DNA of 64,000 nucleotides, taken from NCBI GenBank assembly GCA_016786885.1, contig JAEUVO010000052.1, forward strand, positions 12,930 through 76,929. Reading direction: 5' to 3'. The position numbers and the translations under genes were made by a program. The notes under the pieces were generated by a model. That model saw only the letters and a list, made by a program, of their open reading frames with translations, searched no databases and was not told the DNA's origin. This stretch comes from Chitinophagaceae bacterium. GTDB lineage: Bacteria > Bacteroidota > Bacteroidia > Chitinophagales > Chitinophagaceae. Shown piece by piece: positions 42,426 to 54,257 of this stretch. The stretch's first letter is position 1, and the number at the start of each line of letters is the position of its first letter.

Positions 42426-43637
42426 TTAAAATAGCCTGGCAATCTGATACACTCCTGCTGCCAGCAAAGCACTGATAGGAATAGTAAGTACCCATGCCCA
42501 GATTAGGTTGATCGTTACTCCCCATCTGACGGCAGATAATCTCTTTGTAGCACCTACTCCCATAATGGCACCTGTGATGGTGTGGGTGGTACTTACAGGA
42601 ATCTTCAAGGCTTCAGTAATGAAAAGGGTCAATGCGCCGGCAGTTTCTGCAGCTACTCCCTCAAAAGGAGTGACTTTGGTGATCTTGGTGCCCATAGTCT
42701 TTACAATCTTCCAGCCACCACTCATGGTGCCGAGCCCGATTGCAGCATAACATGCAATAGGTACCCAGTCAGGCATTTGTTTGAAATCAGTAATTGTACC
42801 GCCAGCTATTAACGCAGCTGTAATGATTCCCATTACTTTTTGCGCATCATTACCACCGTGCCCAATACTGAATGCGGCTGATGAGATCAATTGTAACCTT
42901 TTAAACCACTGATTTGCTTTATGTGCATTCAGATTGCTCAGGTAAAGAGAAAAAGAAGCCATTACGAGCAAAATGAAGGATAACAGGATCCATTTGAAAT
43001 TTTTCGAATAAAAAATGACCTGGCTGATATAATTTTCATAATGTGTTTTTTTCGCCAGCACCTCTTTATTAAACTCAAGACTAATAGCGAGAAAAATGAT
43101 AACGAAAATTATCACACAAACGGAAAATATTTTTGATGTCCAGCCTTTTTTAAAGGAGCTTAAGAACCATAAAGACATAATGAAGGCCATCACCATACCA
43201 ATGAGGGGCGCCAGGAAAATAAAACTGGCGGTTCTGATAATGATAGATGAATTAACTGCCTCAAATCCTCCTGCTGCAATAGCTGCGCCGGCAAAACCGC
43301 CGATCAGTGTGTGTGAAGATGAAGAAGGAATGCCCAGCCACCATGTCAACAGGTTCCAGGCTATGGCTGCTATTAGGCCGGAAAAAATAACGACCATCAT
43401 ATTACCTTCCAGTATATGATCAGGCTTTACTGTTTTAGCAACAGTATCAGCAACGCCATGGTCTTTGAAGATAAAGAAGGCTATAGAATTAAATACTGCA
43501 GCCCACAAAACTGCCTGGAAAGGAGTAAGTACTTTGGTAGACACTACAGTGGCAATAGAATTGGCCGCATCGTGAAAGCCGTTGATATAATCAAATATCA
43601 GTGCTAGAGCTATGATGGTTATGAGAAAAGGTGTCAT
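42426..43637 (-). CDS. Inorganic phosphate transporter, PiT family
   Basis: NGFHDAANS, PSSSSHTLIG, HGGNDAQK, PVSTTH. Confidence 0.96.
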   Translation of the reverse strand: MTPFLITIIALALIFDYINGFHDAANSIATVVSTKVLTPFQAVLWAAVFNSIAFFIFKDHGVADTVAKTVKPDHILEGNMMVVIFSGLIAAIAWNLLTWWLGIPSSSSHTLIGGFAGAAIAAGGFEAVNSSIIIRTASFIFLAPLIGMVMAFIMSLWFLSSFKKGWTSKIFSVCVIIFVIIFLAISLEFNKEVLAKKTHYENYISQVIFYSKNFKWILLSFILLVMASFSLYLSNLNAHKANQWFKRLQLISSAAFSIGHGGNDAQKVMGIITAALIAGGTITDFKQMPDWVPIACYAAIGLGTMSGGWKIVKTMGTKITKVTPFEGVAAETAGALTLFITEALKIPVSTTHTITGAIMGVGATKRLSAVRWGVTINLIWAWVLTIPISALLAAGVYQIARLF

Positions 43638-43672
43638 AAATATTAGTCAGATGATGGAGTAATAGCTGGTGC

Positions 43673-44323
43673 TTATGCGTATTTGATGATTATTGACTCT
43701 ATCACATTACTGGCGTCTTCACATTTATCAGTAACAATCTCCATTACCTGGTATATTTCTCTTTTTTTGATTACTTCTTTGGCATCTGGCTCCGTAGCGA
43801 ACAGTCTTTCAATACTCATATCAAAAATATCGTCTGCCTGGTTTTCAATGCTGTTTATTTTCACCAAAGCCTCGGTGATATTGCGCATATTTTTCATATC
43901 CCGCAGTTCAGTTACCGCAATTTTTACCTGCTGGCAGCTTTGTTCAATTAACTCAGAAAATTTCTGCATTCCCATATCATTAGGATTTACCCGGTAGAAA
44001 TTGATCTTTTTGGCAGAAGCATAGATATAGTCAGCAATATCATCCAGCGAAGTGGCCAGGTAGTGAATGTCTTCCCTGTCAAACGGGGTAATGAAATTAC
44101 GGCCGAGTTCAGTGAACAGGTTGTGGGTCAGTTCATCATTGGCATGTTCCAGATCTTCGATCTGTATGATCAGGGCAGCTCTTTTATCAAAATCAGGTTC
44201 CGCTACCACATCTTTGAGCTGGGAGCCCATTTTGGATACGTTGTCAGCTACTTTTTCGAATAATTCATAAAATACCTTGTTCTTCGGCATGAAGATCTTC
44301 AGAAAAGAATTGAGTCCGGCCAT
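43673..44323 (-). CDS. DUF47 (PhoU-like) phosphate-transport regulator
   Basis: LEHANDE, FITPFDREDI, ENQADDIF, DKCEDA; directly upstream of PiT. Confidence 0.94.
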   Translation of the reverse strand: MAGLNSFLKIFMPKNKVFYELFEKVADNVSKMGSQLKDVVAEPDFDKRAALIIQIEDLEHANDELTHNLFTELGRNFITPFDREDIHYLATSLDDIADYIYASAKKINFYRVNPNDMGMQKFSELIEQSCQQVKIAVTELRDMKNMRNITEALVKINSIENQADDIFDMSIERLFATEPDAKEVIKKREIYQVMEIVTDKCEDASNVIESIIIKYA

Positions 44324-44420: not shown

Positions 44421-44470
44421 TAATAATAACTTAATATATAAATAAAATTAGGGTAACAATTCAATAACAA
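44421..44470 (+). promoter_or_regulatory. 11-bp-periodic TAA(C)A array (Pho-box-like) upstream of the porin
   Basis: TAATAA 44421, TAATAT 44432, TAAAAT 44443, TAACAA 44454, TAACAA 44465. Confidence 0.6.
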
Positions 44471-44504
44471 AGACTTTATATTGCAGCAATTTTAAGCATA
44501 TATC

Positions 44505-45845: not shown

Positions 45846-45922
45846 TAACATTCCGGTAACATTCCCATCATAATTGGTTAACATGGGGGTAACATACCAG
45901 TAATGTAGCGGACACAACTTTG
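45846..45922 (+). promoter_or_regulatory. Six-unit 11-bp-periodic TAACAT array (Pho-box-like) plus -7 element CAACTTTG
   Basis: TAACAT at 45846, 45857, 45879, 45890; TCATAA 45868; TAATGT 45901; CAACTTTG 45915-45922. Confidence 0.8.
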
Positions 45923-45938
45923 CCGCAAATAACCATGT

Positions 45939-48755
45939 ATGTATTTCAGGCTGCGATTATTGTTAAGTGTATTGTTGCTCACTGCTTTTGTATCTCTGCA
46001 TGCCCAATCAATAAAACTTTCGGGTAAGGTTGTTAACAAAAAAAATGAACCACTGCAGGGAGCTACAATTGTTATCAGCGGTGCCGGAAAGCAAGTACAG
46101 GCTGATGTGGAAGGAAAGTTTTATGTAACACTTGAGGCAGGTAAAAAATATACCATCACTGTTTCTAATACCGGCTATCAGACCAAAGAAATAACTGATG
46201 TAGATGTAACGGCTAACCAGGATAATTACCTGGAGATTGTTTTGGAAGATAAGTCAAGCCTTGAGGGGGTGACGATCAGAACATCATCCAGAAGACAAGA
46301 GAATACGACTGCCCTTCTGACTTTTCAAAGAAGTAACACAGCCCTTTCCAGTGGTCTGGCTGCAGACTTTATCCGCCGTACGCCTGATAAAAATACAGGG
46401 GAGGTCTTGAAAAGAGTAAGTGGTACCAGTATACAGGATAACAAATTTGTTATTGTCCGTGGCTTAAGCGACAGGTATAATTCTGCTTTGATCAACAATG
46501 CACAGCTGCCAAGTACAGAGCCTGATAAAAAAGCATTTTCATTTGATGTGATTCCTTCTACACTTATTGATAATATTATCATTAATAAAACAGCCACACC
46601 AGAATTGCCGGGAGAGTTCGCAGGCGGATTGATACAAATAAATACTAAGGATGTACCCACCAGGGATCTGCTTAGTGTTGGTGTAAGCTGGGGCTTCAAT
46701 ACTCAATCAGTGTTCCAGGATTTTATCAGCAATGAGAGGAATGCGAATGACTGGCTCGGTTTTGATGACAGAACAAGGGGATTGCCTAAAGGCTTTCCTA
46801 CTTCTGCACAGGCTTACAGGGCATTAGGGGGTACTACTACCGGTATTCAGCAGCAGATTGAATACAGCAAGTTGTTTAATAATGATGTATACAACGAAAA
46901 AACCACTACAGCTCTACCTTCACAAACTTACAGTCTCACCTGGGGAACAAGCAAGAAATTTAAAAATGGCGGCACATTGGGCAATATACTATCTGTTCAA
47001 TATCGCAACAGTATGCTGAAATATGATGTGGAAAGAAGATTACATGAAGATGATGGAGATGTACTGGTGCAGTTATTTGATGAACAGAACAGATATAGTG
47101 TAAATGTTGGTGCTCTTGCCAATATTTCTTATGTGAAGGGAAGACATAAAATTTCTTTCAAGAATTTATTTAACCAGCTGTTTGAAGATAATTATTATAC
47201 CCGTGGTGGTGTTAGTAATGACCGTATCCAGGATATCAATTTCCGTTCTTCAGTACTAAACCAGCGTTCATTATACAGCGGACAAATTGAAGGCAACCAC
47301 CAACTGACCAATAGTGGTATCAAACTGATGTGGAATGGCAACTTTGCCTATAACTGGAAGTCACAGCCAGATCTACGCACTTCGGCTTATTTCCGTGGAA
47401 AAGGAACCAATGATCCTTTTGAATTTAACGATGACGACACCCGTCGCTTTTTCAGTGACCTGAAGGATTATAGCTACGGCGCTACAGGAAGCCTGACCAT
47501 TCCATTTGTTTTCAAGAAACAAAAGCAAACATTCAAGGCCGGAGGGTCAACTTTAATCCGTATCCGTGATTTCCGCAGCCGCATTTTCCGCTATGAACCG
47601 GCGAATGTATCTCAGTTTGACGCAACTAAGAACCAACTTCCTTACAACCAAATATTCGCCCAGGAAAATATAGCACTGGATGGATTTAAGATCCTCGATT
47701 TTACCAATAACCAGGATAAATATTTTGGTGTGTCTGTACTGAACGGTATGTATGGCATGTTCGATAATAAGTTTGGAGAGCAAGTACGGCTGGTATGGGG
47801 TGTAAGAGTGGAAAACTTCCAGCAGTTTCTTACTACAAGAGATGTGACGGCTAAAAGAGTAGTAGTAAATACAGAAAAATGGGATGTGCTTCCTTCTTTC
47901 AACTTTACACTTTCTCCCAATAATAAACACAGTATACGGGTAGCGGGCAGCCGCACAGTAGCCAGACCGGAATTCAGAGAGATCGCACCTTTCTCTTTCT
48001 TTGATTACGAAGTGAACTATGCAGTAAATGGAAATCCGGATCTGAAAAGAACTTCCATTCTCAATGGGGATGTTCGTTATGAATTTTATCCCAAAGGTGG
48101 TGAAGCAATCACTATCGGCGCCTTTTACAAAAACTTTGATGACCCGATTGAACTACGACTGAATCCTTCGAGTGTATTGGACAGACGTAACTATGAGTAT
48201 ACCAATGCTGACAAGGCTTACTCAATCGGTGCTGAATTTGAAGTAAGAAAAAATCTTGATTTCCTAAGTAAATCACTGGAGAATTTCAGCGCCTTTATCA
48301 ATCTTACTTATATCTATTCAAAGGTTACTCTTGCTTCTACTTCCGGAACCGGCAGTGCTACTACTTCTAACCGTCCTTTACAAGGGCAATCTCCTTACCT
48401 GGCCAATTTGGGGTTACAGTATAACAGCAAGAAGGGCGGATGGAATGGTTCGTTGCTGTACAACAGGATCGGTCAGCGGCTGGCACTGGTTGGAATAAAT
48501 GACCTGGGTTTCCCGGATATATATGAAAGACCCCGTGACCAGGTAGATCTGCAGATCGCCAAAAAAATATTCAAAGACAGGGGTGAATTGAAACTTACTT
48601 GGGCAGATATCCTGAACCCCGCTTATTATTTCTATGAGAATGTGGACAGCAAGAAAGCATACAGCGGTGGTAATGACAGGTTGTTCTACTCCTATACACC
48701 GGGTTCAACCATTTCAATTGGTTTCACCTACGATTTCAATGTTGGAAAAAAATAA
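45939..48755 (+). CDS. TonB-dependent receptor
   Basis: Signal peptide, carboxypeptidase-like N-domain, plug (RGLSDRYNS, FDVIPS, LPGEFAGG), TVARPEFRE, GNPDL, C-terminal barrel strands. Confidence 0.94.
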   Translation: MYFRLRLLLSVLLLTAFVSLHAQSIKLSGKVVNKKNEPLQGATIVISGAGKQVQADVEGKFYVTLEAGKKYTITVSNTGYQTKEITDVDVTANQDNYLEIVLEDKSSLEGVTIRTSSRRQENTTALLTFQRSNTALSSGLAADFIRRTPDKNTGEVLKRVSGTSIQDNKFVIVRGLSDRYNSALINNAQLPSTEPDKKAFSFDVIPSTLIDNIIINKTATPELPGEFAGGLIQINTKDVPTRDLLSVGVSWGFNTQSVFQDFISNERNANDWLGFDDRTRGLPKGFPTSAQAYRALGGTTTGIQQQIEYSKLFNNDVYNEKTTTALPSQTYSLTWGTSKKFKNGGTLGNILSVQYRNSMLKYDVERRLHEDDGDVLVQLFDEQNRYSVNVGALANISYVKGRHKISFKNLFNQLFEDNYYTRGGVSNDRIQDINFRSSVLNQRSLYSGQIEGNHQLTNSGIKLMWNGNFAYNWKSQPDLRTSAYFRGKGTNDPFEFNDDDTRRFFSDLKDYSYGATGSLTIPFVFKKQKQTFKAGGSTLIRIRDFRSRIFRYEPANVSQFDATKNQLPYNQIFAQENIALDGFKILDFTNNQDKYFGVSVLNGMYGMFDNKFGEQVRLVWGVRVENFQQFLTTRDVTAKRVVVNTEKWDVLPSFNFTLSPNNKHSIRVAGSRTVARPEFREIAPFSFFDYEVNYAVNGNPDLKRTSILNGDVRYEFYPKGGEAITIGAFYKNFDDPIELRLNPSSVLDRRNYEYTNADKAYSIGAEFEVRKNLDFLSKSLENFSAFINLTYIYSKVTLASTSGTGSATTSNRPLQGQSPYLANLGLQYNSKKGGWNGSLLYNRIGQRLALVGINDLGFPDIYERPRDQVDLQIAKKIFKDRGELKLTWADILNPAYYFYENVDSKKAYSGGNDRLFYSYTPGSTISIGFTYDFNVGKK

Positions 48756-51886: not shown

Positions 51887-51980
51887 ACAGGCTCTGTATA
51901 AAGCTACAAAAACTTAACAATAAGGTAATATTAAATTTTTCATTTCTCAATAATTACCCCTAATCCGTTGTTTTAATCAG

Positions 51981-52035
51981 TAATTATTAATTAATGCGCT
52001 CGTAACAACCCGGTAATAATGATGAATGAATTTTA
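51981..52035 (+). promoter_or_regulatory. Four-unit 11-bp TAA array plus -7-like GAATTTTA, with no credible gene downstream
   Basis: TAATTA 51981, TAATGC 51992, TAACAA 52003, TAATAA 52014; GAATTTTA at 52028, 14 nt after the last unit as at 45901-45915. Confidence 0.55.
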
Positions 52036-52039
52036 CAGC

Positions 52040-52137
52040 AGTTCTTAGTCCGGTTACAAATGGCGTTAGTAAGGATCGCCGGTGGAAAATTCTCATGCAG
52101 TTGCCACCCTGGTACGTTCTGTACAGGGTGGTTTTTT
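52040..52137 (+). ncRNA. Candidate Pho-regulated small RNA (~100 nt)
   Basis: Bounded by the promoter above and by a plus-strand terminator, although both flanking genes are on the minus strand. Confidence 0.45.
52103..52137 (+). terminator. Plus-strand intrinsic terminator
   Basis: CCACCCT(G)GTAC-gttct-GTACAGGGTGG followed by TTTTTT; no U tract on the minus strand. Confidence 0.75.
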
Positions 52138-54053: not shown

Positions 54054-54130
54054 CAAAATACGTAAAGAGTTATTACCTGAATGCGAAGAATGATTTAAGA
54101 AATTGTAATCAATATGTGATGTAATCATTA
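54054..54130 (-). promoter_or_regulatory. 11-bp-periodic array plus -7-like GTATTTTG for the phosphoesterase-GT operon
   Basis: Minus-strand units at 54130 TAATGA, 54119 TCACAT, 54108 TTACAA, 54097 TAAATC, 54075 TAATAA (54086 poor); -7-like element starts 14 nt after the last unit. Confidence 0.5.
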
Positions 54131-54191
54131 ATACATACTTGCTGGTGTATATATTATTCAAATGTTACCAGGCAAAAAATTATTGAACTAT

Positions 54192-54257
54192 TCATTTTTC
54201 GATAACTATTCGTTTATCTCTTCTTAAGATCAACTTCATATACCTGTGTCAACTTCG
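54192..54257 (+). promoter_or_regulatory. Degenerate 11-bp-periodic array plus CAACTTCG for susC
   Basis: TCATTT 54192, TAACTA 54203, TTATCT 54214, TAAGAT 54225, TCATAT 54236; CAACTTCG at 54250. Confidence 0.5.

Follow-up and report, generated by a model that had tools for sequence, protein, structure and literature searches.

What kind of element are the six phased TAACAT-like hexamers that precede a TonB-dependent receptor gene in the genome of a Chitinophagaceae bacterium? The first-pass annotation of the window (the whole stretch of 64,000 nucleotides that was analysed) regarded them as a Pho-box-like operator with fixed geometry. This reading is supported by the conservation of the promoter, its phosphorus-gene context, the transfer of the motif to pstS promoters, and the geometry. 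Because of the anatomy of the array, its conservation, its link to phosphorus genes, and its geometry, it is interpreted here as a Pho box operator, the predicted binding site of a phosphorylated PhoB-type response regulator, with a probability of about 80%. The features discussed are collected in Table 1.

Table 1. Coordinates of the receptor promoter, its neighbouring genes, and other promoters with phased units. Positions refer to the window unless a contig is named.
Feature	Position	Strand	Description
Six-unit array, predicted operator	45846-45906	+	TAACAT, TAACAT, TCATAA, TAACAT, TAACAT, TAATGT; 11-bp register
-7 box of the receptor promoter	45915-45922	+	CAACTTTG; 14 nt from the start of the last unit (45901)
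Conserved stretch, followed by ATG	45923-45938	+	CCGCAAATAACC (consensus TTTGC-N3-AAAT); from the ortholog alignment
TonB-dependent receptor gene, 938 aa	45939-48755	+	ATG at 45939; Plug, TonB_dep_Rec_b-barrel, CarboxypepD_reg; first gene after the array
Lipoprotein gene, 450 aa	48800-50152	+	No Pfam match; predicted co-transcribed partner of the receptor
Porin-like outer-membrane protein gene, 443 aa	44505-45836	+	C-terminal F; no Pfam match
Pit-family phosphate transporter (PHO4) and PhoU_div/DUF47 protein (PitR-like) genes	42426-44323	-	Divergent from the porin-like gene
Array of the porin-like gene	44421-44481	+	TAATAA, TAATAT, TAAAAT, TAACAA, TAACAA, then TTATAT
Array of the small-RNA promoter	51981-52035	+	TAATTA (51981), TAATGC (51992), TAACAA (52003), TAATAA (52014); GAATTTTA at +14
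PlcP-like/glycosyltransferase promoter	54054-54167	-	TAATAA (54075-54070); GTATTTTG (54061-54054) at +14
Array of the SusC-like gene	54203-54257	+	TAACTA, TTATCT, TAAGAT, TCATAT (degenerate); CAACTTCG at +14
Choice-of-anchor-I beta-propeller lipoprotein gene	C32:76158-77810 (other contig)		Second-best array of the genome

Anatomy of the receptor promoter

Direct reading and a hexamer scan agreed on four perfect TAACAT units, starting at 45846, 45857, 45879, and 45890 on the forward strand. Two degenerate units, TCATAA at 45868 and TAATGT at 45901, share the register of these four, so that the earlier description of four perfect and two degenerate units at exact 11-bp intervals holds. A Pho box is recognized by at least two direct repeats with an 11-bp period; six are present here, and the array may be read as three head-to-tail dimer sites. 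The 3.98 Mb genome contains 1708 copies of the TAACAT hexamer, both strands counted. Nowhere but in the receptor array do two or more exact copies stand 11 bp from each other, and no other locus has four phased units that reach at least 20/24 at any period from 8 to 14. About 1e-8 loci with four exact in-phase copies would be expected genome-wide, and a chance origin of the array is excluded. The array starts 10 nt past the stop codon of the porin-like gene, and no terminator was found between the porin-like and the receptor genes. The spacers are G+C-rich and mutually different, which argues against a recent duplication.

The -7 element was confirmed at 14 nt after the last unit, as had been annotated, with the distance measured from the start of that unit; the gap between the unit and CAACTTTG is 8 nt. 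The box agrees with the Bacteroidota -7 consensus TAnnTTTG at A2 and at the TTTG, and has C instead of T at position 1. In Bacteroidota promoters the -33 element is TTTG or TTG, about 19-21 bp upstream of the -7 box. Neither TTG nor TTTG was found at this position of the receptor promoter, which is occupied by unit 5 and its spacer; the -33 half of a Bacteroidota -33/-7 promoter is therefore missing. A missing -33 element together with a weakened -7 box would be the look expected of an activator-dependent promoter. With the box placed at about -12 to -5, units 6 and 5 fall at roughly -26 to -21 and -37 to -32, the latter in the -33 region. A sigma-70-like pair inside the array (TTAACA-18-CATAAT) was rejected as a chance-level match.

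The stretch between the box and the ATG is strongly conserved among 54 orthologs (C 98%, AAA 100%, T 91%), and would contain the transcription start and a short leader. A conserved sequence of the type TTTGC-N0-3-(G)CAAA(T/C) follows the -7 box at several promoters. It reads TTTGCCGCAAAT at the receptor gene (45919-45930), TTTGCAAAACCGTTACACATG at the alkaline-phosphatase-family gene (C51:83240-83260; near letter-perfect in most of nine orthologs), and TTTGCGCAAAC at phoB (C51:87740-87760). This stretch may indicate where transcription starts, or it may be another signal with partial palindromic symmetry.

Conservation of the receptor promoter

Fifty-four distinct orthologous receptor promoters of Chitinophagaceae were aligned, with the -7 box as the anchor. 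The six units and the box at +14 aligned without gaps in 54/54 promoters. Mean pairwise identity was 0.80 in the units, 0.51 in the spacers, and 0.31 in the 5-nt upstream flank. Across the six units, position 1 is T in 98-100% and position 3 is A in 96-100% of the orthologs. The TTTG of the -7 box is 100% conserved; the C at position 1, already flagged as non-consensus by the first-pass annotation, is kept in 87%. Several of the conserved arrays precede receptors of only about 40% protein identity, a distance at which neutral DNA would be saturated. The alignment thus points to purifying selection that acts on the units as well as on the +14 box. Further away in the order, the homologous receptor gene is still preceded by two or three TTAACA units with 11-bp spacing.

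One ortholog locus (L129), from a nanopore assembly, has a single 12-bp unit spacing and its box at +16. These deviations are probably indel errors and no natural variant.

Gene neighbourhood and the candidate regulator

The receptor gene is followed by its predicted lipoprotein partner, and a hairpin with a T-run lies downstream of the lipoprotein gene. On the other side, the synteny of the Pit, PitR-like, and porin-like genes is conserved across the genus. The same contig (C51) encodes a PlcP-like metallophosphoesterase with a glycosyltransferase, a SusC-like protein, two beta-propeller phosphoesterases, and a second receptor. It also encodes PhnZ-like and PhnX-like enzymes, a transporter, a TIGR03364 oxidoreductase, an alkaline-phosphatase-superfamily enzyme, and a kinase/regulator pair. 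By its predicted gene content, the locus is a phosphorus-acquisition island. A phosphonate-type cluster at C51:74903-84348, partly past the end of the window, contains the PhnZ-like HD oxygenase, the PhnX-like hydrolase, the transporter, and the TIGR03364 oxidoreductase. This cluster is located between a TonB receptor gene and the array-bearing alkaline-phosphatase-family gene, and adjoins the PhoB/PhoR-like pair.

The PhoB-like regulator and its kinase are encoded at C51:85927-87735, about 28 kb downstream on the same contig and outside the window. Four full-length OmpR-family regulators were found in the genome, and PhoB models were the top match only for the C51 regulator. It scored 228 bits with TIGR02154 (cut-off 296) and 216 bits with the Bacteroides PhoB model (cut-off 270). 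The best matches of the partner kinase are the PhoR and PnpS models, likewise under the equivalog cut-offs. The other three regulators were two RprY-like proteins and one YycF/RpaB-like protein. The promoter of the PhoB-like regulator has a consensus TAGGTTTG box and no in-phase units; there is thus no sign of autoregulation, and this possibility was dropped.

Neither PstB nor PstS was found in the genome (99% complete), which has no Pst/PhoU system. PstS was absent from all sampled genomes of the same family, and scored over the family cut-off in 13 of 61 genomes in the order. The Pit transporter with the PitR-like DUF47 protein seems to be the sole phosphate importer. As Pst is lacking, the kinase cannot sense phosphate through Pst/PhoU.

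Phased units at other promoters of the island

The first-pass annotation reported the same 14-nt offset at three further positions of the window. At the small-RNA promoter (52014-52028) this was borne out, with four phased units and GAATTTTA at +14. No ORF was found behind this promoter, and a forward-strand terminator lies at 52105-52137. The interval 52028-52137 would suit a similarly controlled transcript with a length of roughly 100 nt. BLAST matches to the locus were obtained in five close relatives only. A further pair of units 11 bp apart, TAACAA/TAATAT at 51915-51931, precedes the first unit of this array by 55 nt (5 x 11) and is in phase with it; the four intervening positions are not units.

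At the PlcP-like/glycosyltransferase promoter (54075-54061, minus strand), the +14 offset was present and is kept in most relatives examined, but GTATTTTG has T at position 2 and falls outside the proposed box pattern nAnnTTYR. This promoter has a single proximal unit, TAATAA, and is weak on this genome alone; a distal dimer, TAACAT-N5-TAATAT, lies at 54167-54151 on the minus strand. In most of the relatives examined, the PlcP-like promoters have an array and a box at +14; the boxes of these relatives read GTACTTTG, TTACTTTG, TTCTTTTG, TTTCTTTG, GAATTTTG, and TACTTTTG. The third position, 54236-54250 before the SusC-like gene, showed CAACTTCG at +14. The box pattern of this promoter is CAnCTT.G. 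The array is low-scoring and weak when taken alone; of the orthologous promoters shown, the four more distant ones retain it and two closer ones do not. Comparison with relatives adds support to all three positions.

Two more genes of the island have phased units. The alkaline-phosphatase-superfamily gene has four units and TTnnTTTG at +14 in 9/9 orthologs; the array is absent from its paralogs (roughly 47% identical). The porin-like gene is preceded by an array of five to six units, kept in 11/12 relatives. No -7 box was found at +14 of the porin-like promoter; TATATTG at +12 and CAATTTTA at +22 are candidate boxes. The geometry of this promoter departs from that of all other sites. A conserved stretch, AAAGAnTTTATATTGCAG, follows the array in the 44421-44504 region.

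Genome-wide scan for further arrays

A unit matrix was built from the units of the receptor promoters, and intergenic DNA was scanned for three units in a row. At period 11, 21, 10, and 6 three-unit windows were found at thresholds of 12, 15, and 18, respectively; the other periods from 8 to 14 gave 1-9, 0-2, and 0 windows. Seven distinct loci score at least 15, and five of them are linked to the proposed regulon. Period-11 arrays are enriched in intergenic DNA. Four of the seven loci are clustered, no more than 26 kb from the phosphorus island or from one another. They are the receptor gene, the porin-like gene beside Pit, the alkaline-phosphatase-superfamily gene, and the small-RNA promoter (51981-52035). 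The choice-of-anchor-I lipoprotein gene on another contig is without phosphorus annotation; its sole link to the regulon is that about 5/9 orthologs also have arrays. This suggests that the lipoprotein might be an unannotated member of the phosphate regulon.

Neither conservation nor function backs the top loci near a deaminase gene (C15) and in an intergenic region of C13, which are probably chance matches. A match before an acyl-CoA thioesterase gene (C27) has no phosphorus link and was treated as chance.

The 11-bp signal emerges only in intergenic DNA with three units. When the spacing of exact hexamers was counted over the whole genome, coding DNA included, no general 11-bp signal was found beyond the receptor locus. 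In a composite scan of this genome alone (a dimer followed by TTTG or TTTA, counted per offset), +14 was not above the other offsets. A genome scan with a unit matrix and the 14-nt offset had been proposed with the earlier annotation: its first part held, as the unit arrays were enriched at period 11, but the composite with the +14 box was not. The spacing rule was therefore tested on orthologous promoters and on the pstS promoters of other genomes.

The pstS promoters and the +14 register

Since this genome has no pst operon, the matrix was tested on the 300 nt upstream of pstS in 13 other genomes, all of them from different families of the order. In 8/13 genomes it found period-11 dimers, which scored 11.7-20.5 bits. 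Other periods reached at most 8.1, and the 95th percentile of the control windows was 6.7. In four of the five misses, pstS directly follows another coding region, so that the true promoter would lie outside the tested stretch; the fifth has a three-unit array that is visible by eye and scores under the threshold. Arrays were also found in 6/30 and about 20/40 further pstS regions from genomes sampled across the phylum, and the families with such arrays are many. The pstS regions of one family with a G+C content near 50% were without arrays. The matrix was derived from receptor promoters only, and the pstS result is therefore an independent test. By this test, pstS, the most universal PhoB target, is preceded by what reads as the same operator.

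Matches had been expected at phosphatase and phosphate-transport genes. They were found before the alkaline-phosphatase-superfamily gene in this genome and before pstS in other genomes. Canonical Pho genes with the operator thus include pstS elsewhere, and the alkaline-phosphatase-superfamily and PlcP-like genes.

The position of the downstream box was counted as TA..TT at offsets 4 to 39 from the last unit called, in 33 pstS arrays from other families. The box occurred 8 times at +14, 4 times at +25, and 5 times at +36, and 0-2 times at every other offset. The background is about 0.008 per offset, and 8/33 at +14 corresponds to p near 1e-9. The secondary peaks at +25 and +36 keep the 11-bp phase. 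An in-phase box was present in only about half of the 33 arrays; some of these arrays are probably from classes whose promoters are of another type. A fixed distance to the downstream promoter element was found in 54/54 receptor orthologs and in 9/9 alkaline-phosphatase-family orthologs, both at +14, and appears again in the pstS peaks. As a general statement, the 14-nt spacing rule stands at the receptor, alkaline-phosphatase-family, and many PlcP-like promoters and shows as a peak at the pstS promoters, but fails at the porin-like promoter.

Proposed mechanism and alternative readings

Under phosphate scarcity, the PhoR-like kinase would phosphorylate the PhoB-like regulator. As the genome lacks Pst/PhoU, Pit and the PitR-like DUF47 protein may report the flux of phosphate to the kinase. 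In S. aureus, PitR-type proteins control PhoPR (PMC13170248). Each 11-bp unit would be occupied by one winged-helix domain of the regulator, with neighbouring domains head to tail, and six units would hold three dimers. The proximal dimer, on units 5 and 6, would cover the site of the -33 TTTG, 14 and 25 nt upstream of the weakened CAACTTTG. From this position over the -33 site and upstream of a weakened -7 box, it would replace the -33 contact and recruit RNA polymerase, much as PhoB of E. coli acts at -35 as a class II activator. The output would be the TonB-dependent receptor and its lipoprotein partner. Inferred in this model are the identity of the binding protein, its action as an activator and not as a repressor, the position of the transcription start, and the stoichiometry.

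A broader proposal is about evenly balanced between right and wrong. The +14 (+11n) register might be a phylum-wide class II docking rule on the unusual primary-sigma promoter of Bacteroidota, where PhoB replaces -33 recognition and contacts sigma region 4, always from the same helical face. This operator might also, in Pst-less Chitinophagaceae, wire the phosphate status sensed by Pit/PitR to a regulon of TonB receptors, unannotated surface lipoproteins, lipid-remodelling genes, and a small RNA.

The array might instead be the operator of another OmpR-family regulator, RprY-like or YycF/RpaB-like, that controls outer-membrane proteins and responds not to phosphate but to an envelope signal or another nutrient. 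The genome encodes four regulators of this family, for which direct-repeat binding is a common trait, and the PhoB-like one scores under the equivalog cut-off. The targets do include outer-membrane proteins (the receptor, the porin-like, and the SusC-like proteins). However, the same motif and geometry are found before pstS in other families, and both also occur before phosphatase-type and PlcP-like genes. The top matches cluster in the phosphorus island, which holds the PhoB/PhoR-like pair. Control by another OmpR-family regulator is unlikely, mainly in view of the pstS result.

Somewhat less probable still is a phosphate-responsive factor of another protein family, or a repressor operator or roadblock against read-through from the porin-like gene. 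The direction of regulation is not readable from the sequence, and a roadblock would suit a place that begins 10 nt after the stop codon of the porin-like gene, with no terminator before the receptor gene. However, the phase of the array is fixed to the -7 box, and the lack of a -33 element with a weakened -7 box is a classical activator-dependent layout, which recurs at unrelated genes. As for a factor of another family, head-to-tail units with an 11-bp period are a typical mark of winged-helix response regulators (PMC9306846).

Non-functional repeat DNA (the remnant of a tandem duplication, or bending A/T tracts) would account for a periodic array with A/T-rich unit cores, and an RNA element of a porin-receptor transcript is conceivable, but both are very improbable: the units are conserved and the spacers diverged in 54 genomes, the spacers are G+C-rich and unlike each other, and the RNA reading was rejected, as the fold at the receptor promoter was not significant (z = -0.37 against shuffles) and no Rfam family matched there.

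Comparison with known Pho boxes

The Pho box is a known kind of element. The PhoP box of B. subtilis consists of TT(A/T/C)ACA repeats about 11 bp apart, at which several dimers bind cooperatively. It shares with the array a TTAACA-type hexamer in tandem direct repeats; the promoter is different, a Gram-positive sigma-A promoter with -10 and -35 elements.

Direct repeats of 11 bp are the established binding mode of PhoB, as the first-pass annotation stated in agreement with PMC9306846. The E. coli Pho box likewise has 11-bp direct repeats, and every repeat takes a single winged-helix domain in a head-to-tail arrangement (PMC9306846). It also stands in for the upstream promoter element, close to the downstream one and at a fixed distance from it, and several boxes may occur in one promoter. 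The unit is TAACAT here and CTGTCAT in E. coli, and six units are present here. The partner element is the Bacteroidota -7 box TAnnTTTG, whereas in E. coli it is the sigma-70 -10 hexamer. The present genome also differs in that PstSCAB/PhoU is lacking.

The cyanobacterial SphR box consists of at least three CTTAACCT repeats with 3-bp linkers (PMC1906773). Its TTAAC core is nearly identical to that of the present units, the period is 11 bp, and three or more tandem units are needed (PMC1906773). It belongs to another phylum and another promoter type, and no fixed -7 offset was described there.

In Flavobacterium johnsoniae, phosphate depletion strongly induces a TonB-dependent receptor and an unannotated lipoprotein encoded beside phoBR (PMC8115612, Lidbury et al. 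2021). A glycosyltransferase, PlcP, the SusCD-like PusCD, and phosphatases were also induced, and the OprP gene of the same cluster was not (PMC8115612, which reports expression only and mentions neither a promoter nor a motif). Except for OprP, the induced kinds of genes match the array-bearing kinds in the present genome, a likeness by gene kind.

The paper on PhoB of B. fragilis names the Pho box concept without giving a sequence. No published sequence of a Bacteroidota Pho box was found in the literature searched. The search also found no paper with a cis-element definition or on activator placement at the -33/-7 promoter. The Bacteroidota Pho box sequence, its -7 register, and its regulon in Pst-less Chitinophagaceae appear to be undescribed in this literature.

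Biological significance

The Pho regulons of Bacteroidota have so far been described by expression, for example in Flavobacterium johnsoniae. With a motif and a spacing rule, such regulons would be predictable from sequence in uncultured Chitinophagaceae of soil and water. Unannotated surface proteins and a small RNA might be assigned to phosphorus scavenging. A defined promoter architecture would be available for phosphate-responsive expression tools in Bacteroidota. The receptor promoter might also be a concrete test case of how a response regulator recruits the divergent RNA polymerase of Bacteroidota.
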